64,000 nucleotides of DNA from an uncultured Bacteroidales bacterium. GTDB taxonomy: Bacteria > Bacteroidota > Bacteroidia > Bacteroidales > VadinHA17. The notes under the pieces were generated by a model. That model worked only from the letters and a program-made list of their open reading frames with translations. It was not told the origin of the DNA and made no database searches. Location of the stretch: positions 1,856 to 65,855 of the forward strand of contig CAVVRY010000013.1 in the NCBI GenBank assembly GCA_963750735.1. Direction: 5' to 3'. The position numbers and the translations under genes were made by a program. Every line of letters begins with the position of its first letter. Positions within the stretch are counted from its first letter, which is position 1. Below are positions 798 through 21,630 of the stretch, piece after piece.

Positions 798-876
798 AAT
801 ATTTTGGTTTTAGGATTTGTAGACAGTTATATACCTAAAAAGAAACCATATATTCAACAGGTAAAAACAAAATCGT

Positions 877-3261: not shown

Positions 3262-3295
3262 TTTACTTCCGGAATATCAATAAATTACTTCTAAA

Positions 3296-4135
3296 ATGAA
3301 AAAGAAGAAATTTCCCATCTTCCTTGCAGCAATGCTTATGTTCCCGGCTTCTTTCGCTGGAACTAAAAATGACTCAGTATCTATTACCTATATCGCAAAT
3401 TGTGGGTTTATGATTGAAATTGATTCAAAAAAAATCTTGATTGATGCTCTTTTCAAAGAAGGATTTAATCATTATACAGTGCCTGATTCCAGTACAATTG
3501 CTTTGATAAACTCTAATAAGAAACCCTTTAATGGTATAGATCTGGTTTTGGTGACGCATAAACATGCTGATCATTTTGATCCAGAAATGCTTATAAGCTT
3601 TATGCTCAGAAACCCAGGTGCCAAGCTAATTTGTCCCACACAGGTTATTGAATTATTAAGTCAACATGAAATTGGGTACAATAAAATCAAATCAAATATC
3701 ATTAATGCGAGCCCTGAATTGTATCGCTCAGAGCTCATCAAGATAGATGGGTTTGAAATATATGCCTGCCGGCTGATGCATGGCCATGTGAATAATAAGG
3801 ACATACAAAATATTGCCTACCTGGTAAGCTATAACGGAAAGTCAGTATTTCATACCGGTGATGCAGATCCACATCAGGTTGATAAATATTCCGGTGTGAA
3901 TATAAATGAAGAGAATATTCTTGTAGGACTTATAAACGATGGTTTTGGGAATATTAAAAATGCAGAAATAACCCGCCAGTTTATAAATGCTCAATACAAT
4001 GTTACTATGCATCTTCCCGAAAAGATTTCTAAAATCTGGCTGGAACCCTTGAAAGATCAACCTGACTTATTTTCAAATCCTTTTGTTTTTACAGAACCCT
4101 TGCAGCAAAAGACCTTTTACACAGAATCTAAATAA
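3296..4135 (+). CDS. MBL-fold metallo-hydrolase, secreted
   Basis: 279-aa ORF with signal peptide. HxHxDH motif (THKHADHFD) and a downstream His/Asp (HTGDAD). Confidence 0.75.
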   Translation: MKKKKFPIFLAAMLMFPASFAGTKNDSVSITYIANCGFMIEIDSKKILIDALFKEGFNHYTVPDSSTIALINSNKKPFNGIDLVLVTHKHADHFDPEMLISFMLRNPGAKLICPTQVIELLSQHEIGYNKIKSNIINASPELYRSELIKIDGFEIYACRLMHGHVNNKDIQNIAYLVSYNGKSVFHTGDADPHQVDKYSGVNINEENILVGLINDGFGNIKNAEITRQFINAQYNVTMHLPEKISKIWLEPLKDQPDLFSNPFVFTEPLQQKTFYTESK

Positions 4136-4189
4136 TTATCCTTTATCCTAACGTGTCATTTAAATATTTATGTTTGTTAAAGACTTGTG

Positions 4190-4625
4190 TGCTATTCAAC
4201 AGTCTAGTCTTCGACGGAGCTCAGACTGACTGGGGATTGTTGAAGTTATTATAAGTAGTTACTCTGAGACTTCGGCGTGAGCTCAGTCGAACGCCTGCCG
4301 AAGGGTAGACGGAACAATTTAATTAGGATTTAAATTGGATTCACGGTAGTATTCCCAGTCTAGTCTTCGACGGAGCTCAGACTGACTGGGGACTGTTGAG
4401 GTTATTATAAGTAGTCACTCTGAGACTTCGGTGTAAGCTCGGTCGAATACCTGCCGAAGGGTAGACGGAACAATTTAATTAGGATTTAAATTGGATTCAT
4501 GGTGGTATTCCCAGTCTAGTCTTCGACGGAGCTCAGACTGACTGGAGATTGTTGAAGTTATTTTGTTACTCTGAGACTTCGGCGTGAGCTCGGTCGAACG
4601 CCTGTCGAAGGGTAGACGGAACAAT
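4190..4625. repeat. Tandem array of three 156-bp structured repeat units
   Basis: Units start at 4201, 4357 and 4513 (exact 156-bp period). The third unit has a small internal deletion and ends near 4625. Each unit contains two hairpins and two copies of a CTTCGRCG..GAGCTCAG sub-motif. No ORF. Confidence 0.9.
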
Positions 4626-4662
4626 AAAACCAAAAAGGGAAGCCACAATGAGTAACTTCCCT
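4626..4662 (-). terminator. Rho-independent terminator candidate (minus strand)
   Basis: 7-bp stem AGGGAAG (4636-4642) / CTTCCCT (4656-4662). On the minus strand it is followed by TTTTTGGTTTT (4626-4635). It lies about 35 nt downstream of the stop of the decayed lipoprotein gene. Confidence 0.6.
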
Positions 4663-4697
4663 TATTAGAATGATTAACTTAAAACTTTAATTTTTAA

Positions 4698-5236
4698 TTA
4701 GTAGGTGATTTCTCCTTCTCCCTTAAGTTCATAAACCATATTGACATCATCAGTTGTACCATACGTAATTATTTCACCTGTTGCACCCTCAAATCGACCG
4801 GTACCATCATAAATCTCATATTATAATAGGATAAACCATTTTCTTGCCATGGTGGCCATATCAATTTAGTATGGAGCTCATCACCATTTGCTGCAGTCAT
4901 GACACCTAACCAGTCGCCCACCGGATAAAATCACCGGAACCATCTGGCATGAATTTTACACAGGCCATATTTTTAACAGTAAAATGCCCTAATAAGTTGG
5001 CATTGCCCTGCCCATTAATTATAAACTGAGCATCAACATCTGGGCAATCAGCAGCTCCTGAATATCTATTCCATAGTGCCCCAACTCCTCTTAATACTTA
5101 GAGTTTTGGTTTTAAGTTTCTTAGATTTTAATTCTGTAAGAACATTCAGGTCTTCATCCTGCAGAAGAGATTCATCCTTACTGCAGGCAAATGCAATAAT
5201 GCAAAATGCGAATAGAAAAATGATGCTTTTCTTCAT
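4698..5236 (-). pseudogene. Decayed small lipoprotein gene (at least 3 frameshifts)
   Basis: ATG at 5236 gives MKKSIIFLFAFCIIAFACSKD (lipobox), then a stop after about 56 codons. The rest of the protein can be followed through three further frames to a TAA at 4698-4700: ALWNRYSGAADCPDVDAQFIINGQGNANLLGHFTVKN.. / DWLGVMTAANGDELH.. / YEIYDGTGRFEGATGEIITYG..GEGEITY. No minus-strand ORF of 60 aa or more in the track. Confidence 0.75.
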
Positions 5237-5424
5237 AATAATAATTTTAAAGGTTAAAAAAAAGTGTAATTAATTAATGGATAATTTGTAATTTAGGGTC
5301 CGGTTTTGTGAAATATAAAATATGAAAATTTCATGTAAAAACCAAAAAAATAATTAGAGTATTGTATAACAACAAGAACTGTTTTGTAAATTGCAAACCC
5401 AAAGTCATTCATTAATATCTCCCT

Positions 5425-6006
5425 ATGGGTACTTTTGAATATTTATCTGTATTTGTCTCAATTATTTTGGGTTTAGGTATAACCTATGGGATAGTCGGAG
5501 TCGGTCAACTGGTAAGAAAAAGAAATCAATATGAATTCTACTGGTTACATACAATTCAAATTTTTGCAACATTTTTGATTTTACTCAACGCCTGGTGGAT
5601 TACCTACAGCTGGGTAGGAATGACAGATCTTTCTTTTTTTCATTACCTGTTTTTAACCTGTGCCCCCTTTGTTATCGTTTTGGCCTCAACTTTCCTTTTT
5701 CCTGGCAGAGAAGAATCAAATAAATGGAGCCTTAAGGATCATTATTTCTCAGTTTCCCGGCCATATTATATTCTAATAAGCCTTGTGTGGCCATTGGATT
5801 TTATCGATACACTATTGAAAGGAACTGATCGGGTTGCGGAACTCGGGTGGACATATGCAGTGATATCCTGGGCTGCATTTCCGATTATTGCTTCAGTGGC
5901 TTTCACTCGCAAGCCATGGTATCATGGATTGGTACAAATTATCAATATCATTGGATTGATTGTAACAAAATTCATGTATGCCCCAACACTTGAGTCACTT
6001 ATTTGA
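5425..6006 (+). CDS. Integral membrane protein, unknown family
   Basis: 193-aa ORF with about 5-6 hydrophobic helices. It has a disrupted paralog at 11270-11850. Confidence 0.7.
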   Translation: MGTFEYLSVFVSIILGLGITYGIVGVGQLVRKRNQYEFYWLHTIQIFATFLILLNAWWITYSWVGMTDLSFFHYLFLTCAPFVIVLASTFLFPGREESNKWSLKDHYFSVSRPYYILISLVWPLDFIDTLLKGTDRVAELGWTYAVISWAAFPIIASVAFTRKPWYHGLVQIINIIGLIVTKFMYAPTLESLI

Positions 6007-6017
6007 GAAATATTCGA

Positions 6018-6881
6018 ATGTGTGAAAAAATAAAATCGGGCAGAAGTATATATTTTGCATTGATATTTGCTATGCTCCTATTCGGCTGTCTGGAAAAGAA
6101 AAAGGAAGAAAGAACAAATCGTTTTAAAGAAGCCAGACAGGTTGTTTTGGAGGAGATTCAGGAGATTATTGACTCGTCCTTTGTAAAAGGCTCAGTATTG
6201 GTTTTTGATCCCCAACGCAATATATATTATTCCAATGATTTCGAATGGGCAAACCAGGGGAAACTTCCAGCTTCTACGTTTAAAATTCCGAATTCAATAA
6301 TAGCCCTGGAAACCGGTATTATTGATAGTGACAGTAGTATAATTAAGTGGGATGGCGAAAAAAGGAATTTGGCTATTTGGGAACAGGATCTTAGCTTTCA
6401 TGACGCATTTCAGTTTTCATGTGTTCCATGTTACCAGGAAATTGCAAGGGAAATTGGTGAAAACAGGATGCGTAAATACCTTGCGAAATTGGAATATGGT
6501 GAAATGGTTTTTGACTCAAATAGCATTGATTGGTTCTGGTTGGTTGGAGAGTCAGCTATATCCCAGTTTCAACAAATTGATTTTCTTGAAAGGTTATACA
6601 ATGGTGAGCTTCAGATATCTGACAGAACAGAGGCAATAATGAAAAGGATGATGCTCATCGAGAAAACAGATGATTATACTTTATCAGGCAAGACAGGCTG
6701 GTCGTATTATAAGGAGATTGATAATGGCTGGTTTGTTGGCTATGTTAACAAAAACAAAGAGATATATTACTTTGCAACGAATATTGAACCCCAAGAGAGC
6801 TTGAACATGGATTTATTTCCTGCCCTGAGGAAGGAAATAACACTGGAAGCATTAAAAATCCTGGGAATTTTAAAATATTGA
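6018..6881 (+). CDS. Class D (OXA-like) beta-lactamase, lipoprotein
   Basis: Motifs S-T-F-K, S-C-V (SxV), Y-G-E (at the YGN position), K-T-G and W-F-V-G in the canonical order. Signal peptide with lipobox LLFGC. ATG at 6018 preferred over the in-frame TTG at 6003 used by the ORF track. Confidence 0.85.
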   Translation: MCEKIKSGRSIYFALIFAMLLFGCLEKKKEERTNRFKEARQVVLEEIQEIIDSSFVKGSVLVFDPQRNIYYSNDFEWANQGKLPASTFKIPNSIIALETGIIDSDSSIIKWDGEKRNLAIWEQDLSFHDAFQFSCVPCYQEIAREIGENRMRKYLAKLEYGEMVFDSNSIDWFWLVGESAISQFQQIDFLERLYNGELQISDRTEAIMKRMMLIEKTDDYTLSGKTGWSYYKEIDNGWFVGYVNKNKEIYYFATNIEPQESLNMDLFPALRKEITLEALKILGILKY

Positions 6882-7004
6882 ATCTTTCCATATTATTATG
6901 AATTTATGAGCATCCATTTGTTGGCTAAAATCAGGGTTAACACTTCAACCTTTTGGTCATTTTTTGTAAATTCGTTGCTTAAACCTGCTAACTAAATATT
7001 CATT

Positions 7005-9311
7005 ATGAGATCATTGACAATTATCTTAATCATCGTACTCTTTTCTGCCTGTAGTTACCATGAAGAAACATCTAACCTAAAGCTCTGGTATGAACAGCCA
7101 GCTGAAGCCTGGACAGATGCACTTCCTGTTGGAAATGGCAGGTTGGGTGCTATGGTGTACGGAGGAGTGGAAAAGGAATATATCCAGTTCAATGAAGAAA
7201 CACTTTGGAAAGGTGGACCACATGACTATGCACATAAGGGAGCGGTGAACTACCTGAGCGAGATAAGACAACTTCTATTTGACGGCAAACAAAACGAGGC
7301 ACACAAGCTGGCAATGGAAAAGTTTATGAGTACTCCATTAACCCAGATGGAATACCAACCCTTTGGTGATCTCTATTTTGAATTTCCCGGGCATGAAGAC
7401 TACAGTAATTATTATCGTGAGCTCGATATTGAGAAAGCTGTTTGTAAAACATCTTACTCAGTAAATGACATTTTATACACCCGTGAAGTAATTGCCAGTT
7501 ATCCAAAACAGGTTATTGCTGTTCATATTGAGGCTAGTAAAGCTAAATCTCTCTCCTTTAGTGTTTATATGGATGCCAGCCATGAAATAAAGTCCCTGTC
7601 TACAGAAGGGAATACCCAGATCTTACAGGTGGCTGTGAAGGATGGTGAATTGAGGGGAACTGCCGGTATAAAAGTTGAATCAGATGGGACGATTTCAAAT
7701 GAAAAAGATAAAATTGTTATAAAAAATGCCAGATCAGCAACCATATTGTTGAGTGCCAGTACGAATTTTATTTCATACAAGGATATTAGCAAAGATCCAC
7801 TGGCCAGCATGCAAAATGTATTGAATGCCTCAGAAGGACTTTCATATAAAGAGATTAAAGAAAATCATATAGCTGACTATCAGTCTCTTTTTAACAGATT
7901 TTCACTGGACCTGGGAACAAATGGAAGGGATAGTCTTCCAACTGATAAGAGACTTGAGGAATTTATTGAATCGCCCGATGATCCCTCCCTAATCAGCCTG
8001 TATACTCAATTTGGACGTTATTTGCTTATTTCATCAAGCAGACCAGGCACTCAACCGGCAACCCTTCAGGGAATTTGGAATAAGGAGCTGGATCCGGCCT
8101 GGGGAAGTAAGTATACTACCAACATCAATGCAGAAATGAATTACTGGCCTGCTGAGTTAACCAATCTCTCAGAATGCAATGAGCCGCTTTTTGGCTTAAT
8201 AGAGGATTGCTCAGAGACAGGAAAAAATGTTGCAAAAGAACATTATGGAGCTGATGGATGGATTTTACATCACAACACAGACCTATGGCGTGGGACGGCT
8301 CCAATAAACCATTCTAATCACGGAATGTGGCTTGGTGGAAGTGGTTGGATGTCAAGTCATCTGTGGGAGCATTATCTATTTACTCAGGATCTTATTTTTT
8401 TAGAAAAAAGGGCCTACCCCATTATGAAAAGTGCTGCTACTTTTTATTCGCAAGTACTTATTGAAGATCCTGAAACAGGCTGGTTGATAAGCACTCCTTC
8501 CAATTCACCGGAGATAGGGGGAATGGTTGCAGGTCCGACTATGGATCACCAGATTATCCGTTCTCTTTTTAAATCATGTGTAGAAGCCTCAGAAATACTG
8601 GGTGTCGATCCTGAATTCAGAAGCCAGTTAAAGACTCTGATTCCAAAAATTGCTCCAAATCAAATTGGAAAATACGGACAATTACAGGAATGGCTGCAAG
8701 ATGTGGATGATCCGGAAGTGAAGCACCGACATGTTTCTCATTTATGGGGCGTGCACCCTGGTAAGGATATTACCTGGGAAAGTGATCCTGAATTGATGGA
8801 AGCTGCCAAACAATCACTCCTTTTCAGAGGAGATGAGGGTACAGGATGGAGCCTTTCCTGGAAAATTAACTTCTGGGCTCGTTTTCTGGATGGAGATCAT
8901 GCCTATGAGTTAATTAAATTACTTTTCAGACCGGTGTCTTCAACAAATACAAAGTACATGGGTGGAGGAGGATCCTATGCAAACCTTTTCGATGCGCATC
9001 CCCCATTCCAGATCGATGGAAATTTTGGTGCTCCTGCAGGTATTGTGGAGATGTTGATACAGTCACATCAATCCGTTATTGATATATTGCCAGCTTTGCC
9101 CTCTGCATTGCCCAATGGTAAAATCTCCGGTGTTTGTGCCCGTGGAGGCTTTGAACTAACATTCAGTTGGGAAAATGGGGCTCTTACAAGCTTAAAAGTT
9201 CTTTCAAAGGCTGGTAAACCTTGCGTTTTGCGTTACAAAGGAGAGATTATAGAGTTAGAAACAATGTCCGGACAAAGCTATATTCTGGATGAGGAAATAA
9301 AGAGTCTTTAA
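7005..9311 (+). CDS. Glycoside hydrolase family 95 (alpha-L-fucosidase-like), lipoprotein
   Basis: 768-aa ORF. The N-terminal LWYEQPAEAWTDALPVGNGRLGAMVYGG..ETLW signature and overall length are typical of GH95. Signal peptide with Cys (FSACS). Confidence 0.85.
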   Translation: MRSLTIILIIVLFSACSYHEETSNLKLWYEQPAEAWTDALPVGNGRLGAMVYGGVEKEYIQFNEETLWKGGPHDYAHKGAVNYLSEIRQLLFDGKQNEAHKLAMEKFMSTPLTQMEYQPFGDLYFEFPGHEDYSNYYRELDIEKAVCKTSYSVNDILYTREVIASYPKQVIAVHIEASKAKSLSFSVYMDASHEIKSLSTEGNTQILQVAVKDGELRGTAGIKVESDGTISNEKDKIVIKNARSATILLSASTNFISYKDISKDPLASMQNVLNASEGLSYKEIKENHIADYQSLFNRFSLDLGTNGRDSLPTDKRLEEFIESPDDPSLISLYTQFGRYLLISSSRPGTQPATLQGIWNKELDPAWGSKYTTNINAEMNYWPAELTNLSECNEPLFGLIEDCSETGKNVAKEHYGADGWILHHNTDLWRGTAPINHSNHGMWLGGSGWMSSHLWEHYLFTQDLIFLEKRAYPIMKSAATFYSQVLIEDPETGWLISTPSNSPEIGGMVAGPTMDHQIIRSLFKSCVEASEILGVDPEFRSQLKTLIPKIAPNQIGKYGQLQEWLQDVDDPEVKHRHVSHLWGVHPGKDITWESDPELMEAAKQSLLFRGDEGTGWSLSWKINFWARFLDGDHAYELIKLLFRPVSSTNTKYMGGGGSYANLFDAHPPFQIDGNFGAPAGIVEMLIQSHQSVIDILPALPSALPNGKISGVCARGGFELTFSWENGALTSLKVLSKAGKPCVLRYKGEIIELETMSGQSYILDEEIKSL

Positions 9312-9369
9312 GATTATATACTATAGTTTATTTTGGCAGATAGTTGGAACCAACTCATCTTTTTGAGAT

Positions 9370-10062
9370 TTATCCACTTCTACTGATTTTTTGTAGTAAT
9401 CCCATGTTAAGGATCTTAAAGCCTTTTCCTTTGGGTTCAATTATCTTATCATCACTGAATTCTGCTAAAATACGGACTACGCTTTCAACAGCCATTCCTG
9501 ACAATTCTGCAAGATCCTTTCGTGACAAATAGGCATATATATCTTCCGATTTAAACTCTTCTCCATTTAAGTAAAGGAGTGTACTTGCCAGTTTACCATG
9601 TAATTGCTTCAATCCCTGATCAAAACATTTGGTAAACATAAGATTGTAATTTTTACAATACCAGCTAACAATTTCATGGGTGAATATGTTACTTTCTGAA
9701 AGTAAATTACGAATTGCATCCACTTCAATAGAACAAATAATTGTATTGGTTAATGCTGCTGCAGAATAATGATAGGTATGGTCGCCATATAAAGATGTAA
9801 GACCCAGGAAATCATTTGATTTTAAAAGTTTGACAATTACATTCTTGCTTGGGCTTTCCAGGTAAACTTTTACAATACCCTCTAAAACATAAAAAACAGA
9901 TGAAACATAGGTTCCTTCTTTAATTATTGTTTCCCCTTTCCTATAGCTGATCTGTACTTTTTGTTGTTCTGCAAACTTTTCTACAAAATCAATTTTTTGC
10001 GTAAAACAATCCGAACTTCTATCGCACTCAATACAATTTCTTTTTTCAATAAATCGATTCAT
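9370..10062 (-). CDS. FNR-type Crp/Fnr family transcriptional regulator (copy 1)
   Basis: 230 aa. N-terminal C-x2-C-x5-C (NCIECDRSSDC) plus a central Cys (IICSIEVD), the same pattern as the E. coli FNR [4Fe-4S] ligands. cNMP-binding-like beta-roll. C-terminal HTH SRKDLAELSGMAVESVVRIL. Confidence 0.8.
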   Translation of the reverse strand: MNRFIEKRNCIECDRSSDCFTQKIDFVEKFAEQQKVQISYRKGETIIKEGTYVSSVFYVLEGIVKVYLESPSKNVIVKLLKSNDFLGLTSLYGDHTYHYSAAALTNTIICSIEVDAIRNLLSESNIFTHEIVSWYCKNYNLMFTKCFDQGLKQLHGKLASTLLYLNGEEFKSEDIYAYLSRKDLAELSGMAVESVVRILAEFSDDKIIEPKGKGFKILNMGLLQKISRSG

Positions 10063-10232
10063 TAGTAGGATTTTTCACCAATGCTTTGTTGTAAACTACA
10101 TTATTATAAAGATACAAATCTTATCTGTAATTGTAGTTATTGGCAATCCTTAAATATGGATGGTTTTAATTTTTTAATTTAATAATATACTCTCTATAGC
10201 CAGGTTAATAATACTTAGGAACAAAGGAGTTT

Positions 10233-10937
10233 CTATACTTCCTCTAACACAAATAATATTGGAAAAGTAAATGATACCCGTACTGGTATTCCCCTTTGTT
10301 TTCCAGGGGTCCATTTTGGTGAAGATTTTACCACACGCAGGGCCTCAGCATCCAGCGCAGGATCTATCCCTCTTAAAATGCTTACATTACTGACTGAGCC
10401 ATCAGGTTCCACAACAAATTTAACAAAAACTCTACCACTGATTCCGTTTTCAGCAGCGACCTGTGGATATTTTAGATTTTGGAAAATATATTTTCTAAAA
10501 CCTTCCTGCCCTTCCCCTCTAAAGTCAGGCATATCTTCCACTATGAAAAAGATTTCCGCTTCTTCCGCTTCTTCTTCAGTTTCCTGCCCAAATTCAGTAA
10601 ATTTCATGATTTCAATCTCAGTATCCTGACTTACTTCAAAATCCTTCAGTATAAATTCATCGTTAATTTCAATTTCATCATCAACGATTTCAAATATTTC
10701 AATGATTTTCTCAGGTTCCGGGGGTGCTAATGGTTCTTGTTTTTCCTGAGTAGTTACAGGAATAATTTCCTCTTCAAATATTTCGGATGTTCCTGCCATA
10801 TATTCATTTAGTGAGGAACTGCTTGAGCTCCATTCAAAGGCAATTACTACGGCAGAAATAGCAATAACCAGGCCTATTTCTAAAAACAAGAATCTTGTTT
10901 TTTCAAGGTCTGCTTTTGGAGATTTTTTTGTTTCCAT
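10233..10937 (-). CDS. TonB family protein (energy transducer)
   Basis: 234 aa. N-terminal membrane anchor, acidic Glu-rich linker, and a C-terminal TonB_C-like segment: YPQVAAENGISGRVFVKFVVEPDGSVSNVSILRGIDPALDAEALRVVKSSPKWTPGKQRG. Confidence 0.8.
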   Translation of the reverse strand: METKKSPKADLEKTRFLFLEIGLVIAISAVVIAFEWSSSSSSLNEYMAGTSEIFEEEIIPVTTQEKQEPLAPPEPEKIIEIFEIVDDEIEINDEFILKDFEVSQDTEIEIMKFTEFGQETEEEAEEAEIFFIVEDMPDFRGEGQEGFRKYIFQNLKYPQVAAENGISGRVFVKFVVEPDGSVSNVSILRGIDPALDAEALRVVKSSPKWTPGKQRGIPVRVSFTFPILFVLEEV

Positions 10938-10988
10938 GGTATTTTATTTTAAATTGTTAAACAAAAACCAGAATCAAAATTGTAAGCT

Positions 10989-11061
10989 TCAATAGCACAT
11001 TTTATCATTTGTTTCAAGGTCCCCTTCGATATAATCTTCTATCAGTTTGTCCGGCTCCTGA
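10989..11061 (-). pseudogene. 73-bp 3' stub of a NifX/NifB-like gene (duplication scar)
   Basis: Near-identical to 18824-18896, the 3' end of the NifX-like gene. Homology stops abruptly after CCGGCTCCTGA. Confidence 0.75.
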
Positions 11062-11269
11062 ATCTTACTGCAGAAGCTATGAGCGTAGTCTTTTTTTTAT
11101 TGTATAAAGTGTAATTAATTAATGGATAATTGTGATTTAGGGTCTGGTTTTGTGAAATATAAAATATGAAAATTTCATGTAAAAACCAAAAAAATATTTG
11201 AGTTTTGTATTACAAGAAAAACTGTTTTGTAAATTGCGAGAGGAAAGTCACTCACTTAAGCTTTACCCT

Positions 11270-11850
11270 ATGGGTACTTTTGAATATTTATCTGTATTTG
11301 TCTCAATTATTTTGGGTTTAGGTATAACCTAGGGATAGTCGGAGTCGGTCAACTGGTGAGAAAAAGAAATCAATATGAATTCTACTGGTTACATACAATT
11401 CAAATTTTTGCAACATTTTTGATTTTGCTCAACGCCTGGTGGATTACCTACAGCTGGGTAGGAATGACAGATCTTTCTTTTTTTCATTATCTGTTTTTAA
11501 CCTGTGCCCCCTTTGTTATCGTTTTGGCCTCTACTTTCCTGTTTCCTGGCAGAGAAGAATCAAATAATAAGAGCCTTAAGGATCATTATTTCTCAGTTTA
11601 CAGACCTTACTATATACTAATAAGCCTTGTATGGCCATTGGATTTTATCGATACACTATTGAAAGGAACTGATCGGGTTGCGGAACTCGGGTGGACATAT
11701 GCAGTGATATCCTGGGCTGCATTTCCTATTATTGCTTCAGTGGCTTTCACTCGCAAGCCATGGTATCATGGATTGGTACAAATTATCAATATCATTGGAT
11801 TGATTGTAACAAAATTCATGTATGCCCCAACACTTGAGTCACTTATTTGA
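11270..11850 (+). pseudogene. Disrupted paralog of the 5425-6006 membrane protein
   Basis: Same ATG context as copy A. A 1-nt deletion turns ACC TAT GGG into ACC TAG at codon 21. The remaining ORF (11356-11850) only restarts at a GTG. Confidence 0.8.
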
Positions 11851-11861
11851 GAAATATTCTA

Positions 11862-12724
11862 ATGTGTGAAAAAATAAAATCGGGCAGGAGTATATATTTT
11901 GCATTGATATTAGCTATGCTTCTATTCGGCTGTCTGGAAAAGAAAAAGGAAGAAAGAACAAATCGTTTTAAAGAATCCAGACAGCTTGTTTTGGAGGAGA
12001 TTCAGGAGATTTTTGATTCTTCCTTTGTAAAAGGTTCAATATTGGTGTTTGATCCCCAACGCAATATATATTATTCCAATGATTTCAAATGGGCAAACCA
12101 GGGGAAACTTCCAGCTTCTACGTTTAAAATTCCGAATTCAATAATAGCCCTGGAAACTGGTATTATTGATAGTGACAGTAGTATAATTAAGTGGGATGGC
12201 GAAAAAAGGAATTTGGCTATTTGGGAACAGAATCTTAGCTTTCATGACGCATTTCAGTTTTCATGTGTTCCATGTTACCAGGAAATTGCAAGGGAAATAG
12301 GTGAAAACAGGATGCGTAAATACCTTGCAAATTGGAATATGGTGAAATGGTTTTTGACTCAAATAGCATTGATTGGTTCTGGTTGGTTGGAGAGTCAGCA
12401 ATATCACAATTCCAACAAATTGATTTTCTTGAAAGATTTTACAATGGTGAGCTTCCAATATCTGACAGAACAGAGACAATAATGAAAAGGATGATGCTCA
12501 TCGAGAAAACAGATGATTATGCTTTATCAGGCAAAACAGGTTGGTCGTATTATAAGGAGATTGATAATGGCTGGTTTGTAGGCTATGTTGCCAAAAACAA
12601 AGAGATATATTACTTTGCCACGAATATTGAACCTCTAGAGAGTTTGAACATGGATTTATTTCCTGACCTGAGGAAGGAAATAACAATGGAAGCATTAAGA
12701 AGACTGGAAATAATAGAATATTAA
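11862..12724 (+). pseudogene. Frameshifted class D beta-lactamase paralog
   Basis: A 1-nt deletion (GCGAAATTGG in copy A versus GCAAATTGG) near 12328 splits the gene into ORFs 11847-12482 and 12332-12724. STFK is still present in the first part and KTG in the second. Confidence 0.85.
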
Positions 12725-12848
12725 TTCGTTCCACATTATTATGAATTCATGAACAGTCTTTTGAAGGTTAAAATCAGGAGTTAGCGCTTCAAGCTTTTGG
12801 TCATTTTTTGTACATTCGTTGCTTAAACCTGATAACTAAATATTTATC

Positions 12849-15153
12849 ATGAGATCATTGACAATTATCTTAATCATCGTAATATTTACTGCATGTAGTT
12901 ACCATGAAGAAACATCTAACCTGAAGCTCTGGTACAACCAGCCGGCAGAGGCCTGGACAGATGCCTTCCAGTTGGCAATGGTCGTTTGGGTGCTATGGTT
13001 CACGGAGGAGTCGCAAAGGAATACATCCAGTTCAATGAAGAAACTCTATGGAAAGGCGGTCCACATGACTATGCCCATAAGGGGGCAGTGAACTACCTGA
13101 GCGAGATAAGACAACTTCTATTTGACGGCAAACAAAACGAGGCACACAAGCTGGCAATGGAAAAGTTTATGAGTACTCCATTAACCCAGATGGAATACCA
13201 ACCCTTTGGTGATCTCTATTTTGAATTTCCCGGGCATGAAGACTACAGTAATTATTATCGTGAGCTCGATATTGAGAAAGCTGTTTGTAAAACATCTTAC
13301 TCAGTGAATGATATTTTATACACCCGTGAAGTAATTGCCAGTTATCCAAGCAGGTAATTGCTGTTCATATTGAGTCTAGTAAGGCGAAATCTCTTTCATT
13401 CAATGTTTATATGGATGCCAGCCATGAAATAAAATCTCTGTCTACAGAAGGGAATACTCAGATTTTGCAGGTGGCTGTGAAGGATGGTGAATTGAGGGGA
13501 ACTGCCGGTATAAAAGTTGAATCAGATGGGACGATTTCAAATGAAAATGATAAAATTGTTATAAAAAATGCCAGATCAGCAACCATATTGTTGAGTGCCA
13601 GCACGAATTTTATTTCATACAAGGATATTAGCAAAGATCCACTGGCCAGCATGCAAAATGTATTGAATGCTTCGGAAGGACTCTCATTTAAAGAGATAAA
13701 AGAAAATCATATAGCTGATTATCAGTCTCTTTTTAACAGATTTTCACTTGACCTGGGAACAAATGGAAGGGATAGTCTTCCAACTGACCAGAGACTTGAG
13801 AAGTTTATTGAATCACCAGAAGATCCATCCCTGATTAGTCTGTATACTCAATTTGGGCGTTACCTGCTGATATCCTCCAGTCGTCCAGGTACTCAACCGG
13901 CAAACTTGCAGGGAATCTGGAACAAGGAACTTGATCCGCCATGGGGAAGTAAGTATACTACCAATATCAATGCAGAAATGAATTACTGGCCGGCTGAGTT
14001 AACCAATCTCTCAGAATGCCATGAACCACTTTTTGGCTTAATAGAGGATTGCTCAGAGACAGGAAAAAATGTTGCAAAGGAACATTATGGAGCTGATGGA
14101 TGGATTTTACATCACAACACAGACCTATGGCGAGGGACGGCTCCAATAAACCATTCAAATCACGGAATGTGGCTTGGTGGAAGTGGTTGGATGTCAAGTC
14201 ATTTGTGGGAGCATTATCTATTTACTCAGGATCTTACATTTTTAGAAAAAAGGGCCTACCCCATTATGAAAAGTGCTGCTACTTTTTATTCGCAAATACT
14301 TATTGAAGATCCTGATACAGGCTGGTTGATAAGCACCCCTTCCAATTCACCGGAGATTGGGGGAATGGTGGCAGGTCCGACTATGGATCATCAGATTATC
14401 CGTTCTCTTTTTAAATCATGTGTAGAAGCCTCAGAAATATTGGGTGTTGATCCTGAATTCAGAAGCCAGTTAAAGACTCTGATTCCAAAAATTGCTCCAA
14501 ATCAAATTGGAAAATACGGACAGTTACAGGAATGGCTTCAGGATATTGATGATCCGGAAGTAAAACACCGCCATGTTTCCCATTTGTGGGGTGTACACCC
14601 TGGTAAGGATATTACCTGGGAAAATAATCCGAAATTGATGGAAGCTGCCAAACAATCACTCCTGTTTCGGGGAGATAATGGCACAGGATGGAGCCTCTCC
14701 TGGAAAATTAACTTCTGGGCTCGTTTTCTGGATGGAGATCATGCCTATGAGTTAATTAAATTACTTTTCAGACCGGTGTCTTCAACAAATACAAAGTACA
14801 TGGGTGGAGGAGGATCCTATGCAAACCTTTTCGATGCGCATCCCCCATTCCAGATTGATGGAAATTTTGGCGCTCCTGCAGGTATTGTGGAGATGTTGAT
14901 ACAGTCACATCAATCTGTTATTGATATATTGCCAGCTTTGCCCTCTGCATTGCCGAATGGTAAAATCTCTGGTGTTTGTGCCCGTGGAGGCTTTGAACTA
15001 ACATTTAGTTGGGAAAATGGGACTCTTACTAGTTTAAAAGTTCTTTCAAAGGCTGGTAAACCTTGCGTTTTGCGTTACAAAGGAGAGATTATAGACTTTG
15101 AAACAATGTCCGGACAAAGCTATATTCTGGATGAGGAAATAAAGAGTCTTTAA
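12849..15153 (+). pseudogene. Frameshifted GH95 paralog
   Basis: Three ORF pieces in three different frames (12849-13091, 12986-13357, 13411-15153). 1-nt deletions relative to copy A lie near 12963 and 13350. Confidence 0.85.
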
Positions 15154-15210
15154 GATTATATACTATATTTATTTTGGCAGATTGTTGGAACCAACTCATC
15201 TTTTTGAGAT

Positions 15211-15903
15211 TTATCCACTTTTACTGATTTTTCGAAGGAGTTCCAGGTTAAGAATTTCGATTTTCTTTCCATTTAATTCAATTATCTTATCATCACTGAA
15301 TTCAGCTAAAATACGAACTACACTTTCTACTGCCATTCCGGACAATTCTGCCAGGTCTTTTCTTGAAAGATATGAGTATATGTCTTCCGATTTAAATTTC
15401 TCTTTATTTAAGTATAGCAAAGTAGCTGCCAGCTTTCCATTTAACTGCTTCAATCCCAGGTTGTAGCACTTTGTAAACATCAGGTTATAGTTTTCACAGT
15501 ACCATCTGACTATTTCGTGTGTGAATTTATGGCTCTCAGATAATAAACCACGCATAGCTTCCACATCAATAGTACAGATTGTAGTGTCTGACAACGCTGT
15601 CGCAGAAAAATAATAGGTGTGGTCTCCGAAAAGAGAGGTTAATCCTAGAAAATCATTTGATTTTAGAAGTTTAACTATGATGTTTCTATTTGGGCCTTCT
15701 AGATAGACTTTTACGAAACCATCCAACAGGTAAAACACCGATGAAACAAAGGTGCCTTTTTTAATTATTGTTTCCCCCTTTTTATAATTAATCTGTACTT
15801 TTTGCTGATTGAAGAATTCTTCATTATGATCTATTAATCGGGTAAAACAGTCCAGATTTCTCCTGCAGTCAATACAATTTGTTTTTTCAATATACTGATT
15901 CAT
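15211..15903 (-). CDS. FNR-type Crp/Fnr family transcriptional regulator (copy 2)
   Basis: 230 aa, same length as copy 1. NCIDCRRNLDC plus TICTIDVE cysteines conserved. HTH SRKDLAELSGMAVESVVRIL identical. Clearly more diverged from copy 1 than the flanking GH95 DNA is from its own copy. Confidence 0.8.
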   Translation of the reverse strand: MNQYIEKTNCIDCRRNLDCFTRLIDHNEEFFNQQKVQINYKKGETIIKKGTFVSSVFYLLDGFVKVYLEGPNRNIIVKLLKSNDFLGLTSLFGDHTYYFSATALSDTTICTIDVEAMRGLLSESHKFTHEIVRWYCENYNLMFTKCYNLGLKQLNGKLAATLLYLNKEKFKSEDIYSYLSRKDLAELSGMAVESVVRILAEFSDDKIIELNGKKIEILNLELLRKISKSG

Positions 15904-16056
15904 GGAGTTGAAATAAGTAATCTTGCCGGAATTGAGTCACAATAGTTTCTCTATATAAAGATATAAAACTTATCAATAGGAAACATGTATAAACCAAATA
16001 TCAGGGTATCACTGTTTTTTTCATATGTAATGTATCCTGACACATTTCTAACCATT

Positions 16057-16094
16057 GAGAAAACATAATCCCATGCTATTTATGAAGTCATGGG
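16057..16094 (-). terminator. Terminator candidate downstream of the oxidoreductase gene
   Basis: Stem CCCATG (16070-16075) / CATGGG (16089-16094). On the minus strand it is followed by ATTATGTTTTCTC. The T-tract is only moderate. Confidence 0.35.
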
Positions 16095-16131
16095 ACCATT
16101 TTTCATTTACCTAAAATACTATGGCTTAATG

Positions 16132-17490
16132 CTAAAACATTATTTGTATTGCTACATTGCCAGCTGCTTTTAAGAGTGGATAGCCAGCTGGTGAAGCAGT
16201 AAGTAATGGATGGGTACCTACCTGCATTGTTAACAGAGAATTTATGTTCATTTTGTTTTGAATAATAATGCCAATAGCATTTATTAGTTCACCTACCGAG
16301 TAGCCACCAAAAACCTCACCTCCAAGAATTACTCCGGATTCTTTTCCAACAATTAGTTTAACCATCTGTTTTTTTGTATCTGTTAATGTACCTGGATGTT
16401 TATCCATTCCCTCAAATACTCCGGTTATTATATCAAATCCTTCAGCCAAGGCCTGCGATTCAGTTATTCCTGCAACACCAAAAGCAGTTTTTCCGATGAC
16501 TGTTGAGAAAATTGAAATTGTGCCACTGAATGTTTTTATTGCACAAAGCTTAAATAAATTAACTCCCGCTATTCTAGCCTCGGCACATGCTGTTGATGCC
16601 AGCATAGCACAGCTAGGTTTCCGGGTAATAAAATCGCGTTTTTCAGCGCAATCACCTATAGCGAAAATGTCTGGGTTATCCGTTCTTAAATACTCATCAA
16701 CCCTAATACATCCATGATTATTTATACTTAATCCAGCTTGCTCTGCTAGCTTAGAATTAGGATGGTACTCAACTGATAAAACAACAGCATCGGTTTCAAC
16801 TCTTGTACCATTTTCCAGAAGTACACTATTTACTTTATCAACTCCCAATAACTCTTTAACTCCAATACCCAACATAATATTAATTCCTTGCTCTTTAAGT
16901 ATTTCCTCTGCTTTTTGAGAAAACTCTTTGTCAAAAGCTGTACTGAGAATATGTGGCAATTTTTCAATAAGGACAATTTCTTTTCCCGATTTTCTCAATT
17001 CATCAGAAAGTTCCACACCAATAAAGCCTGCCCCAATAACAGCAATTTTTTTACAATCCTTAAAGTTATTTTTCATATTGTCGAGATATCCTTTATCCTT
17101 TGGAACTGTAAAAACATTATTTAAACTGGTGCCATTCATCCATTTTGGATTAGTCGGTGTTGAACCAGTGGCCAGGACAAGTTTTACATAAGATATTTCA
17201 CTGCCGTCTTCTAATTCACATGTTTTTTTTATACGGTTAATGGAAATAACTTCACCGATTATTAATTCTATATCAGAGTTTTCAAACATTTTATCTGAGG
17301 GTAAGATATTTTCATCTGTACCTGCAATTGAACTAAATGTGTATGGTATGCCACATGGAACCAGTGTTTTTTCTTCTTTTCTAATAACTGTAATTTTTTT
17401 ATCTGGATATACTCTCTTTCCGGCTAATGCGGCAACTAAACCTGCTGCACTGCTTCCAATGACCAGTACATCTGTAGATTTCATTTTCAT
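16132..17490 (-). CDS. FAD-dependent pyridine nucleotide-disulfide oxidoreductase (NADH oxidase / CoA-disulfide reductase class)
   Basis: 452 aa. FAD fold VLVIGSSAAG. Single redox Cys in TLVPCGIPY. Second dinucleotide fold IAVIGAGFIGVE. GD motif AIGDCA. Confidence 0.85.
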   Translation of the reverse strand: MKMKSTDVLVIGSSAAGLVAALAGKRVYPDKKITVIRKEEKTLVPCGIPYTFSSIAGTDENILPSDKMFENSDIELIIGEVISINRIKKTCELEDGSEISYVKLVLATGSTPTNPKWMNGTSLNNVFTVPKDKGYLDNMKNNFKDCKKIAVIGAGFIGVELSDELRKSGKEIVLIEKLPHILSTAFDKEFSQKAEEILKEQGINIMLGIGVKELLGVDKVNSVLLENGTRVETDAVVLSVEYHPNSKLAEQAGLSINNHGCIRVDEYLRTDNPDIFAIGDCAEKRDFITRKPSCAMLASTACAEARIAGVNLFKLCAIKTFSGTISIFSTVIGKTAFGVAGITESQALAEGFDIITGVFEGMDKHPGTLTDTKKQMVKLIVGKESGVILGGEVFGGYSVGELINAIGIIIQNKMNINSLLTMQVGTHPLLTASPAGYPLLKAAGNVAIQIMF

Positions 17491-17551
17491 GTCTTATAGT
17501 ATTAATATTTTGAATAAAATTAATGTATGCTTTGATATATTTCTATGGCAA

Positions 17552-18007
17552 TTATAGGTTTAAGTTTGCCAGTTTCTCCAGCAATTGTGTATCCTCTTTT
17601 TTTGTCTTTTTAATCATATAGTAGAAGATGCTGGTGACATTTCCGTTGGATTTTTCTTCAAAGGACAAGGCCTCATAAAGCTTTAGCAGGCAATTATCGA
17701 AATGTAGTTCTATGCCGGCTAAATCATCGATTGATAAATCTGGACTGGTGTTTATGTCTTTTAGGCACTCAGAAATCTGATTAGATATTTTATTGGTTGG
17801 AAAAAGCAGCCAGAAATTCATTGCCTTGGCTCTTCTTTTATGCTTTTCAAGATATTCTTCCCTTTGTTTCTCCTGGCGGCACAGATCAGCCAATAAGGTT
17901 TTTACTTTAGTATCCTTAGCTTTGCTGTAAAGGCTAAGATACAATTCACATACCTGCTTGTGGTAGTATTGAATCTGCTCAATTATCTCACTTTTTAATT
18001 TATACAT
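17552..18007 (-). CDS. Uncharacterised all-helical protein, paralog 1 (possibly a degenerate ferritin/rubrerythrin-like four-helix bundle)
   Basis: 151-aa ORF. Paralogous to 19214-19678 with shared blocks MYK, EI..QI...HK, LCR.EK.REE, SIDD, H.D.CL.K.YEAL and KKTK. A purine-rich GGGAG lies before the ATG. Fold assignment is a guess. Confidence 0.6.
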   Translation of the reverse strand: MYKLKSEIIEQIQYYHKQVCELYLSLYSKAKDTKVKTLLADLCRQEKQREEYLEKHKRRAKAMNFWLLFPTNKISNQISECLKDINTSPDLSIDDLAGIELHFDNCLLKLYEALSFEEKSNGNVTSIFYYMIKKTKKEDTQLLEKLANLNL

Positions 18008-18060
18008 TATTTTCTCCCTTCATTATATATAGTTCAAAAACTAGATTATTCTGATGACCT

Positions 18061-18769
18061 TTAAATTGTTGATAATTTGAAGTTAAGGGGGAAATAAAAA
18101 GCAACTCTGACCGGTTTACCTCTCTGCTTTCCTGTTCCATTGGGCGATGATTTTACAACCCTTATTGCTTCTTGGTCAAGGGCAGGATCAACACCACGGA
18201 CCAATTGAACATTTGAAATAGAACCATCAGCTTCAACTACAAATTTTACAAAAACTCTACCACTGATACCGTTTTCAGCTGCAACCGGTGGATATCTTAG
18301 ATTTTCTTAAATATATTTACTAAAGCCAGTTCATGTGTCTTTGCCCTCTAAAGTAGGCATATCTTCCACTATGAAAAAGATTTCCGCTTCTTCCTCTTCT
18401 TCAGTCTTCCTGCTCAAATTCAGTAAATTTCATGATTTCAATCTCAGTATCCTGGCTTACTTCAAAATCCTTCAGTATAAATTCATCGTTAATTTCAATT
18501 TCATCATCAACGATTTCAAATATTTCAATGATTTTCTCAGGTTCAGGGGGTGCTAATAGGTTCTTGTTTTTCCTGAGTAGTTACAGGAATAATTTCCTCT
18601 TCAAATATTTCGGTATAAGTTCCTGCCATATATTCATTTAGTGAGGAACTGCTTGAGCTCCATTCAAAGGCAATTACTGACGGCAGAAATAGCAATAACC
18701 AGGCCTATTTCTAAGAAACAAGAATCTTGTTTTTTCAAGGTCTGCTTTTGGAGATTTTTTTGTTTCCAT
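18061..18769 (-). pseudogene. Decayed TonB-family paralog
   Basis: Collinear with 10233-10937. The start context (TTTCCATGG) is conserved. Several 1-nt indels relative to the intact copy, plus CAA to TAA (..KYI* versus ..KYIFQ). The C-terminal TonB_C segment is still readable (PVAAENGISGRVFVKFVVEADGS..). No long minus-strand ORF. Confidence 0.8.
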
Positions 18770-18823
18770 GGTCATTTTATTTTAAAATTGTTAAACAAAA
18801 ACCAGAATCAAAATTGTAAGCTT

Positions 18824-19162
18824 TCAATAGCACATTTTATCATTTGTTTCAAGGTCCCCTTCGATATAATCTTCTATCAGTTTGTCCGGCTCCTGAGTTG
18901 ATACGCCAACATACAGCTGTATTTTGTTATCGCATAATGATTTGGCTAAATCTTTTCTAATCCATCTGGTTATAACAACATTCACACCTTGATTAGCCAG
19001 GTTTTCCGGAATTACATCCAGCTTTTTATTTTGAATGTTTTCCAAATGCCGGGCAGTAATTAGCGAATCTGATGCATGATAGGTCATAGATCATGAATTG
19101 CTTTGATTTTTCAAATTGAAGGGCTGCTTCCCCGTTTGAAACTGGTATTGCGATTTTAGTCA
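18824..19162 (-). pseudogene. NifX/NifB-like (dinitrogenase Fe-Mo cofactor biosynthesis domain) protein, apparent frameshift
   Basis: The ORF 18824-19087 ends in ..NLANQGVNVVITR..IQLYVGVS..EDYIEGDLET, typical of the family. The expected N-terminus MTKIAIPVSNGEAALQFEKSKQFMIYD is encoded from the ATG at 19162 in another frame. The frames meet near 19080. Confidence 0.55.
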
Positions 19163-19213
19163 TTTTAATCCTGTTTAAATATTATGGTTAGTACGTATTA
19201 TATATTTCAGAAA

Positions 19214-19678
19214 TTACAGGTCATAAAGCAAGTTTACATCTCTTGAAAAGTTCATTTCCTGTTGTTTTGTTTTTTTCATGAGTGCATAAAATATGTTGCT
19301 TACCTTGCTATTTGATTCTTCTTCAACAGCAAGTGCCTCATACACTTTAATAAGGCAATCATCAAGATGCATTGCTACTTCAACAATGTCATCAATTGAG
19401 TACTTTGGTTTATATTCAATTTTATCAAAGCACTTACAGATTTTTTTTGATAGGTGTTCATCTGGCAATTGCAGCCAACTTTGCATTAAAGATTCCGGCG
19501 TAATTTCTTTATACCTGATAATAAATTCTTCTCGAAGCTTCTCATGTCGACATAGATATTCAAGCAGCATAATAGCTTTTTGATTCTCAGCTTTACCTAT
19601 CAGACTGCAGTAAAATTCACTCAGACGCTTATGAAATGACCGGATTTGATCTAATATTTCACGCTCTTGCTTGTACAT
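19214..19678 (-). CDS. Uncharacterised all-helical protein, paralog 2
   Basis: 154-aa ORF. Paralog of 17552-18007 (see that entry). AGGAG lies before the ATG. Confidence 0.6.
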   Translation of the reverse strand: MYKQEREILDQIRSFHKRLSEFYCSLIGKAENQKAIMLLEYLCRHEKLREEFIIRYKEITPESLMQSWLQLPDEHLSKKICKCFDKIEYKPKYSIDDIVEVAMHLDDCLIKVYEALAVEEESNSKVSNIFYALMKKTKQQEMNFSRDVNLLYDL

Positions 19679-20276: not shown

Positions 20277-20284
20277 TAGCTTTG
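20277..20284 (+). promoter_or_regulatory. Bacteroidota -7 promoter box candidate (TAGCTTTG)
   Basis: Exact match to TAnnTTTG, 16 nt upstream of the ATG at 20301. Same geometry as the box upstream of tex. Confidence 0.4.
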
Positions 20285-20300
20285 TGGAAAGAAGAAAAAT

Positions 20301-21150: not shown

Positions 21151-21183
21151 TTTTCTATCTCAGATTTGCAAGTCAGAAGCAGA

Positions 21184-21558: not shown

Positions 21559-21630
21559 TTAACAAATATAAGTTTATTTATTTATCAAAGGTGTTGCTCC
21601 TACCCTGCTCACAGAACCAAATAAGTAATT

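Follow-up and report, generated by a model that had tools for sequence, protein, structure and literature searches.

A tandem repeat on a Bacteroidales metagenome contig that probably joins two diverged alleles of a single-copy locus

Introduction

A segment that occurs twice in tandem, with frameshifts crowding into one copy, raises the question of whether a gene duplication has been caught in the course of decay or whether two versions of one locus have come to stand side by side in some other way. The question is posed here by a stretch of 64,000 nucleotides (nt) from an uncultured Bacteroidales bacterium (assembly GCA_963750735.1, contig CAVVRY010000013.1, positions 1,856 to 65,855 of the forward strand), referred to below as the window, in which two units carry, in the same order, genes for a membrane protein, a class D beta-lactamase, a GH95 glycoside hydrolase, an FNR-type regulator and TonB. 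An earlier note on this DNA interpreted the units as a segmental duplication followed by decay of the second copy. Comparison with independent assemblies points elsewhere: it is likely that the units are alleles of a normally single-copy locus and, at the same time, that the lesions of the second unit are for the most part consensus errors rather than marks of pseudogenisation.

Structure of the tandem repeat

The repeat map is based on self-comparison of the window, blastn and a pairwise alignment of both units. These bear out the two tandem units that the earlier note had described, collinear and head-to-tail in direct orientation, and the self-comparison finds no further copy of either in the window. 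Segment A (5261-10062 against 11106-15903) is 91.4% identical over 4811 columns in blastn, and segment B (10396-11061 against 18221-18896) is 94% identical with 13 gap openings, so that unit 1 is laid out as A1, 333 nt and B1, and unit 2 as A2, 2317 nt and B2. The 2317 nt at 15904-18220 belong to unit 2 only and encode an oxidoreductase of 452 amino acids (aa) and a 151-aa protein, in agreement with the stretch of about 2 kb, with an NADH-oxidase-like enzyme and a helical 151-aa protein, noted previously. The features that define unit 1 and its junction with unit 2 are:

5261..10062, unstranded: segment A1 of unit 1, with the upstream region and the genes for the membrane protein, class D beta-lactamase, GH95 and FNR1 (blastn against 11106-15903)
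10988..11061, minus strand: NifX-like 3' stub, the right end of unit 1 (74 nt, 100% identical to 18823-18896)
11062..11105, unstranded: junction filler between unit 1 and unit 2, of unexplained origin (44 nt)

Of the boundaries given in the earlier note, the right end at 18896 stands and the left start at 5175 does not: homology between 5175-5260 and 11062-11105 is not significant, and the true left boundary lies at about 5261/11106. The NifX-like stub is present, with a measured length of 74 nt in place of 73 bp. The 44-nt filler was tried as a homolog of the NifX-like gene or of the 5' part of the neighbouring lipoprotein gene, and both candidates were rejected, as shuffled controls scored at least as high in 432 and 207 of 2000 cases. 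No significant match to adapter sequences of Oxford Nanopore Technologies (ONT), PacBio or Illumina was found in it.

The boundaries lack the hallmarks of a mobile-element-mediated duplication. In accordance with the earlier note, no inverted repeats of at least 40 nt occur in 3000-22000 and no transposase or integrase Pfam domains among the open reading frames (ORFs) tested; the scans of the window also gave no tRNA genes and no Rfam matches, and no compositional anomaly marking either unit was found. A recombination-type origin, which the earlier note had preferred, is more plausible than transposition, the absence of mobile-element hallmarks speaking for it; duplication in situ with subsequent decay is the part of that interpretation that is not supported.

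Mosaic divergence between the units

The two units differ mainly in their central part, where unit 1 has a regulator gene, FNR1, adjoining TonB (the alpha core) and unit 2 has FNR2, the oxidoreductase and the 151-aa protein (the beta core). The genes concerned are:

5425..6006, plus strand: membrane protein copy 1, intact and 193 aa long, without a Pfam family
6003..6881, plus strand: class D beta-lactamase copy 1, intact (NCBIfam NF012161)
7005..9311, plus strand: GH95 glycoside hydrolase copy 1, 768 aa, intact (three Pfam GH95 domains)
9370..10062, minus strand: FNR1, CRP/FNR-family regulator, alpha allele, 230 aa (Pfam cNMP_binding and HTH_Crp_2)
10233..10937, minus strand: TonB1, alpha allele, 234 aa, intact (Pfam TonB_C)
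15211..15903, minus strand: FNR2, beta (ancestral-type) allele, 230 aa, intact (Pfam)
16132..17490, minus strand: NADH-oxidase / CoA-disulfide-reductase-like flavoprotein, 452 aa, beta allele only (Pfam)
17552..18007, minus strand: 151-aa helical protein, beta allele only (ORF and homolog comparison)
18049..18769, minus strand: TonB2, N-terminal part alpha-like, C-terminal part (from about 18420) beta-like, with at least three +1 insertions plus other lesions

Identity between the units is 95-99% over most of the membrane protein, beta-lactamase and GH95 genes and over the TonB N-terminus, and falls to 71-77% in the FNR genes and at the C-terminus of TonB. Synonymous divergence (dS) follows the same pattern. 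It amounts to 0.10 for the membrane protein pair (ratio of nonsynonymous to synonymous divergence, dN/dS, 0.09), 0.14 for the beta-lactamase pair (dN/dS 0.23) and 0.26 for the GH95 pair (0.10-0.55 by block; dN/dS 0.07), and to 1.8 for the FNR pair (dN/dS 0.09) and 2.6 for the TonB C-terminus (dN/dS 0.10), which gives 1.8-2.6 across the core and 0.09-0.26 across the flanks. A divergence so far from uniform does not fit a single duplication with later decay. The dS contrast, together with the groupings of FNR2 and of segment A2 described below, also rules out that the units are, over their full length, each other's nearest relatives with an even silent divergence.

Both FNR-type ORFs are intact at 230 aa, as the earlier note had stated, yet they do not behave as a retained duplicate pair: their dS of about 1.8 stands against 0.10-0.26 in the adjoining genes, and the two regulators are about ten times older than the rest of the units. 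Contigs of other assemblies, designated here by L numbers, place them in separate lineages. FNR1 shares 95% aa identity with its counterpart in L081 and is equidistant from FNR2 (74.8%) and from the regulators of L082 (75.2%) and L174 (74.3%); FNR2 shares 96% with the L082 and 78% with the L174 regulator and groups with L082 and L084, not with FNR1. On these comparisons FNR1 and FNR2 are best regarded as old alleles or xenologs. The proposal that the duplication persists for the sake of its regulator and redox module consequently finds no support, given that the FNR pair consists of old alleles and that the accompanying cargo shows no neutral evolution.

The limits of the divergent stretch can be placed with some precision. 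In the contigs with a beta core (L082, L084-L087) the core adjoins a GH95 3' end only about 81% identical to that of the window (14968-15232), whose own unit-2 version shares 97-99% with unit 1 and L081 there. The allele switch in unit 2 accordingly lies at the FNR2/GH95 intergenic region, and a second switch lies near 18,420 inside TonB2.

Single-copy alleles in independent assemblies

Relatives of the locus were reached by starting from near homologs of the regulators and adjoining genes and looking up identical proteins; a synteny search via GH95 in GTDB genomes and JGI metagenome contigs had a best match of 66% identity and gave none with the neighbouring genes. The synteny comparison for which the earlier note had called did reveal relatives with a single-copy arrangement, namely L174, L175, L089, L090, L093, L082 and L083. 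The most complete is L174 (GCA_033791445.1), a Bacteroidales metagenome-assembled genome (MAG) that carries the whole neighbourhood once and in the layout of unit 2. Its left part runs through a DUF5060 protein, an epimerase, a serine dehydratase, a metallo-beta-lactamase (MBL)-fold protein, the membrane protein, a GH43 gene, the beta-lactamase and GH95, and its right part through FNR, the oxidoreductase, the 151-aa protein, TonB, NifX (112 aa) and a 153-aa protein; the upstream genes match those at window positions 1-4135. Because L174 has the entire neighbourhood once with this layout, the beta layout appears to be both ancestral and single-copy. The GH43-related gene of L174 (8481-9404), between the membrane-protein and beta-lactamase genes, is absent from both window units and from L088 and L089.

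Both cores recur in other contigs. L082 and L083, which are 89% identical, have the order 154-aa protein, NifX, TonB, 151-aa protein, oxidoreductase, FNR2, GH95, with an intact TonB of 239 aa and a NifX of 112 aa, and L084-L087 carry the beta core at 90-96%. On the alpha side, L093 shows a full NifX, TonB (234 aa) and FNR1 and is 97.2% identical to unit 1 with no gaps, and L081 carries TonB, FNR1 and the end of GH95. The alpha core is accordingly a single-copy allele there, joined directly to the right flank.

The left part of unit 2 likewise has its closest relatives outside this contig. L175, a MEGAHIT contig, has the order serine dehydratase, MBL-fold, intact lipoprotein gene and a membrane gene of the unit-2 type; from this intact gene the unit-2 membrane gene differs by one substitution and the frameshift, with identity up to 99.7%. 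Because the L175 gene is of that type, the unit-2 allele evidently adjoins the left flank elsewhere. L088, whose membrane protein, beta-lactamase and GH95 genes are undamaged, matches unit 2 at 95.6% identity and unit 1 at 93.2%, and a three-way alignment has 124 sites at which unit 2 and L088 agree and unit 1 differs. Segment A2 thus groups with L088 and L175, not with unit 1. Membrane protein alleles of the copy-1 type are also present in other assemblies (P0252, P0257). By these groupings the units are two apparent alleles of what is the same locus position in other genomes.

A mosaic of this kind could in principle also be left by an old duplication in situ, its flanks homogenised by gene conversion while the cores around the 2.3-kb insertion/deletion diverged and the regulators were sub- or neofunctionalised; the single-copy contigs would then be secondary collapses. 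The identity does drop steeply around the insertion/deletion, as if heterology blocked conversion, and the observed single-copy layouts, beta or alpha, are what a tandem would leave behind on recombining at its A or B repeats. FNR1, however, is no closer to FNR2 than the ortholog in L174, a distinct MAG, is, which would make the tandem older than that split, yet L174 and all the other contigs that cross its boundaries are single-copy. Unit 2 is moreover nearer to alleles of other samples (L088 at 95.6%, L175 at 99.7%) than to unit 1, which fits allelic exchange between genomes better than conversion inside one, and long direct repeats at 95-99% identity are unstable. Such a history is highly improbable.

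Frameshifts in the second unit

The lesions that the earlier note had placed in three genes of unit 2, before TonB, are present in the sequence as 1-nt deletions:

11270..11850, plus strand: membrane protein copy 2, 1-nt deletion after 11331 (pairwise alignment)
11847..12724, plus strand: class D beta-lactamase copy 2, 1-nt deletion after 12328 (pairwise and outgroup alignment)
12849..15153, plus strand: GH95 copy 2, 1-nt deletions after 12964 and 13347 (pairwise and outgroup alignment)

Polarisation with an outgroup assigns three of these four deletions to unit 2 alone. In TonB2, several +1 insertions set the gene apart from both unit 1 and the outgroups, so that the indels reported for it are present in the sequence, and one candidate nonsense change lies near 18546. 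Apart from that candidate, nearly all lesions of unit 2 are 1-nt indels.

The substitutions tell of continued constraint. With unit 1 as outgroup, the unit-2-specific codon changes comprise 31 synonymous and 10 nonsynonymous ones (10/41), where about 76% nonsynonymous would be expected under neutrality (p = 5e-12), and pairwise dN/dS between the copies is 0.07-0.23. The second copy is as constrained as the intact lineages, and the relaxation that the dN/dS check proposed earlier might have disclosed is not seen.

Gaps are out of proportion to mismatches in particular stretches of unit 2 and beside it. Against L093, 18221-19243 shows 14 gaps and 30 mismatches, as compared with 0 gaps and 43 mismatches for unit 1 (Fisher p = 4e-5); against L175, the unit-2 membrane region shows 6 gaps and 7 mismatches and the left flank 0 and 26 (Fisher p = 5e-4). 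The beta core differs from L084 by 1 gap and 126 mismatches. Several indels, furthermore, fall exactly where the alleles differ. The unit-2-specific 1-nt indels number 13 (11129, 11331, 12328, 12777, 12964, 13347, 18355, 18558, 18679, 18715, 18774, 18784 and 18824), and four of them (11129, 13347, 18558, 18774) delete or double an allelic difference site, against a background difference density of 5.7% (p about 0.005-0.05); the 13347 deletion falls on an A/C difference between the alleles, and the insertions at 18715 and 18679 add the base carried there by the beta-type L082. Indels coinciding with single-nucleotide polymorphisms (SNPs) would be what a consensus taken from a mixed two-allele pile-up produces.

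The lesions are also not confined to redundant genes. Codon-usage frame tracking proved too noisy window-wide, and frameshifts outside the duplication were taken from ORF inspection and Pfam. Two of the affected genes directly adjoin the outer boundaries of the tandem:

4698..5236, minus strand: lipoprotein gene, single-copy, directly left of unit 1 (signal peptide MKKSIIFLFAFCIIAFACSKD)
18824..19163, minus strand: NifX-like gene, full-length, its 3' 74 nt inside unit 2 and the rest in the right flank (Nitro_FeMo-Co domain)

The lipoprotein gene is broken up among three reading frames; beyond the signal peptide its product is traceable through frames 1, 2, 1 and 0, and in L089 and L175 it is intact at 173 aa. 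In the NifX-like gene a +1 frameshift near 19077 puts residues 1-29 in one frame and 30-112 in another (by comparison with L093), whereas L082, L093 and L174 have an intact version of 112 aa. Farther away, a fusion gene of GHL10 and NamZ (exo-beta-N-acetylmuramidase) at 40052-42837 is frameshifted twice, at about 42,450 and again some 150 nt on at about 42,595, and after repair of both the NamZ_C domain is restored as a single stretch. A CvfB-like S1-domain gene at about 20290-21150, apparently truncated at its N-terminus, has a frameshift near 20,340; when the upstream frame is joined, the S1_2 match extends from profile position 21 to 9. With frameshifts in flanking and distant single-copy genes, the decay is not strictly one-sided, as had been claimed. 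Their density in unit 2 nevertheless exceeds that of the remaining window about 6-fold (1.0 against 0.16 per kb, Poisson p = 5e-5), and neither unit 1, 5.9 kb long, nor the 2.8-kb beta core has a frameshift.

That both the tandem and the lesions are real, the alleles having been brought together (instead of one being copied in situ, as the earlier note had it) and the hydrolase operon and TonB of the second copy very recently inactivated by frameshifts, draws its appeal from this roughly sixfold excess beside a unit 1 with none, from the derived state of the lesions in unit 2 relative to outgroups, from the position of most indels outside homopolymers, unlike typical nanopore errors (PMC9262707), and from the intact state of the genes found only in unit 2 (FNR2, the oxidoreductase and the 151-aa protein), as selection would predict. 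The substitutions argue otherwise. At least eight independent frameshifts would have accumulated without a nonsynonymous excess (10/41 codons), and the membrane gene is near-identical to an intact one except for its frameshift, whereas ordinary neutral decay would be expected to bring several substitutions with every indel. Some of the indels coincide precisely with allelic SNP sites, lesions of this kind also affect non-redundant single-copy genes (NifX-like, lipoprotein, CvfB and, twice, NamZ), and the frameshifted beta-lactamase ORF (P0127) is on record from the source contig only. Real inactivation is on balance unlikely. Less likely again is its specific form as a faithful heteroallelic merodiploid, in which a second diverged allele was captured in tandem by illegitimate plus homologous recombination and its hydrolase operon and TonB were rapidly knocked out by an indel-biased process. 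If true, such a merodiploid would be a snapshot of the first steps after duplication by allele capture, in which both regulators and the oxidoreductase module stayed intact while the redundant hydrolase operon and TonB were lost. It is more likely that the lesions are consensus errors or extremely recent events.

Origin of the join

The join between the units may itself be an assembly artefact. An assembler may have strung two strains, with alpha and beta alleles, in series and polished the second copy and the adjoining flanks from mixed reads. Several observations agree with this: every independent contig that crosses a boundary is single-copy, the junction was absent elsewhere in the JGI metagenome pattern search, the unit-2-type membrane gene of L175 sits at the position of unit 1 beside the left flank, frameshift clusters lie beside both outer boundaries (in the lipoprotein and NifX-like genes), the indels on allelic SNP sites imply mixed alleles in the read pile-up, and false haplotype duplications are a documented class of assembly error (PMC9516828). 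The junction itself is difficult to obtain in this way. It is new, made up of a NifX stub with a clean cut and an unrelated 44-nt filler, with no switch within shared sequence; no similarity that could make a false overlap exists between the 3' end of NifX and the sequence preceding the membrane gene; the filler holds no adapter-like sequence; a chance chimeric read would rarely join both ends of one 6-kb locus in direct orientation; and the documented false duplications occur mainly in diploid eukaryote assemblies, near gaps. An assembly artefact remains a serious rival, though a less probable one than a physical join.

The head-to-tail join is somewhat more likely physical than not, a leaning that follows from the junction being new sequence with a cleanly truncated stub instead of a switch inside shared sequence. 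Neither a chance chimera nor haplotype overlap readily accounts for a locus whose end runs, in the same orientation, into its own beginning. The combination of a physical join with mostly erroneous lesions is put forward tentatively, its chances being somewhat short of even.

Under this combination, the locus would normally be a single-copy chromosomal one of uncultured Bacteroidales, and the units would be two of its diverged alleles. Its order would be MBL-fold protein, lipoprotein, membrane protein, class D beta-lactamase and GH95, followed on the opposite strand by the FNR-type regulator, in some alleles the NADH-oxidase-like enzyme and the 151-aa protein, and then TonB, the NifX-like protein and the 154-aa protein. 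The beta core (FNR2, oxidoreductase and 151-aa protein) would represent the ancestral layout and the alpha core, with FNR1 adjoining TonB, a variant of other populations. A fragment of about 5.9 kb from a strain with the other allele may have had its own ends joined illegitimately, leaving the 44-nt filler, and the circularised fragment may then have integrated into the homologous resident locus by one crossover, giving what would be a recent heteroallelic merodiploid. The frameshifts of unit 2 would be mostly consensus errors of an indel-noisy metagenome assembly, arising where reads of near-identical copies or strains piled up together, and both gene sets would have been functional until at most very recently.

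Several points weigh against this account. The indels lie mostly outside homopolymers, unlike nanopore errors, although the platform here may be another. With unit 1 and the beta core free of frameshifts, the noise would have to be very local, and the SNP-coincidence statistic rests on 13 events only. Tandem repeats of 4.8 kb at about 95% identity are expected to be lost fast by homologous recombination. The contigs crossing the left boundary (L175, L089, L090, L174) and the right boundary (L093, L082, L083, L174) are all single-copy, and the junction pattern TCCGGCTCCTGA-N30-60-GTGTAATTAATTAATGG has no match in JGI metagenomes.

Genes of the locus and its flanks

The gene identities proposed in the earlier note stand, with the beta-lactamase above its NCBIfam cut-off and the three GH95 domains and TonB_C found. 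Copy 1 of the beta-lactamase scores 269 bits with NF012161 (cut-off 250) and has STFK and KTG motifs in its translation; the family score and the S-x-x-K and K-T-G motifs identify it as a predicted class D (OXA-type) beta-lactamase. GH95 copy 1 contains Glyco_hyd_65N_2 (PF14498), Glyco_hydro_95_cat (PF22124, E = 4.5e-176) and Glyco_hydro_95_C (PF21307) and is 84.6% identical in aa to its L174 ortholog; TonB1 is 99.1% identical in aa to the L093 TonB. The 452-aa flavoprotein has the Pfam domains Pyr_redox_2, Pyr_redox and Pyr_redox_dim, and its best NCBIfam models, CoA-disulfide reductase (226, cut-off 458) and NADH oxidase (181, cut-off 600), both score below their cut-offs. Its gene occupies the same position in L082, L083, L084 and L174.

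FNR1 and FNR2 both contain PF00027 and PF13545 and have Cys residues at 10, 13, 19 and 110, that is, a C-x2-C-x5-C N-terminal cluster and one central Cys, a pattern for which Cys20/23/29/122 of Escherichia coli FNR is the point of comparison. With the Fnr model NF008365 they reach 40-47 bits, below the cut-off of 228. They are best called CRP/FNR-family regulators with an apparent FNR-like Cys motif.

The conserved flanks contribute the following features:

3296..4135, plus strand: MBL-fold hydrolase, last gene of the conserved left flank and synteny anchor (Pfam Lactamase_B_2/3)
4189..4625, unstranded: 156-nt repeat in three tandem copies, outside the duplication (self-comparison)
19214..19678, minus strand: 154-aa helical protein, with which the intact genes of the right flank begin (also conserved in L082 and L174)

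In L174 and L175 the MBL-fold gene stands among the same neighbours in the same order, and its alignment with L175 is gap-free at 97.6% identity. The 156-nt repeat copies, between the MBL-fold and lipoprotein genes, are 90-98% identical to one another and have no Rfam match; L175 has about one related copy at the same position, so the copy number of the array varies between populations. The adjacent lipoprotein has the lipobox AFAC|SKD. The ends of its gene are about 99% identical to L175 and the central 300 nt about 60-70%, which makes it hypervariable between strains, and it is absent from the more distant L174.

To the right, the 87-aa ORF listed in the earlier note is the downstream part only of the full NifX-like gene. 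The 151-aa and 154-aa proteins are paralogs (44% aa identity) of no known family, both at the same positions in L082 and L174; this positional conservation suggests that the genes for the 154-aa protein, NifX-like protein, TonB, 151-aa protein, oxidoreductase and FNR form an old conserved cluster. Elsewhere in the window, two overlapping ORFs (155 and 174 aa) at 37206-38139 probably represent one gene for a CPBP/Rce1-like intramembrane protease with a frameshift near 37,620-37,670.

Comparison with known systems

At face value the locus offers a textbook-like case of differential retention; on closer comparison the regulators that seem retained are alleles of old standing, and what looks like decay bears the marks of consensus error. 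For genome scans this implies that a near-identical second copy full of 1-nt indels in a metagenome contig needs testing before an evolutionary story is attached to it, and branch-specific dN/dS, frameshifts in single-copy genes of the same contig and independent assemblies are useful tests. Nothing here requires a new kind of system.

The closest counterpart of the proposed join is found in the transformation-generated merodiploids of Streptococcus pneumoniae, tandem duplications formed during recombination with incoming DNA (PMC3784515). As in these, a block is repeated head-to-tail with a novel junction and without transposase or integrase, and would be expected to be recent and unstable. 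The copies here are, by contrast, alleles 5-28% apart rather than identical, no flanking mediating repeat was found, and the present case is known from the sequence of one uncultured Bacteroidales MAG contig alone.

The false haplotypic duplications described in diploid vertebrate assemblies, mostly at gaps and contig ends (PMC9516828), resemble the window in that two haplotypes appear as adjacent copies, one of them looking like a damaged paralog, so that a gene gain followed by pseudogenes is simulated. They differ in that the source here is a metagenomic strain mixture and the join lies inside the contig with a unique 44-nt filler. Frameshift errors from indels are a known class in long-read MAGs (PMC9262707; proovframe preprint 10.1101/2021.08.23.457338), and nanopore consensus errors concentrate in homopolymers (PMC9262707). 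The present lesions share with them 1-base indels that split conserved ORFs without substitutional decay and are scattered over the contig; unlike them, they are mostly non-homopolymer, locally clustered and in several cases placed on allelic SNPs, which points to mixed-allele pile-ups.

Allelic cassette variation at a conserved locus, kept up by homologous recombination in its flanks, is finally the known pattern that the locus as a whole resembles. What the contigs delineate is, in terms of predicted genes, a conserved Bacteroidales cluster in at least two allelic forms, told apart by a 2.3-kb oxidoreductase module and by a regulator that has diverged by 25%; its members are the 154-aa protein, NifX-like protein, TonB, 151-aa protein, oxidoreductase and FNR-type regulator, beside GH95, the class D beta-lactamase and the membrane protein. 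As in other such cassettes, a divergent core (either FNR1 by itself or FNR2 together with oxidoreductase and 151-aa protein) lies between conserved flanks of mosaic identity, and both versions circulate in related populations. One cassette per genome is the normal state, whereas in this window both stand on one contig.

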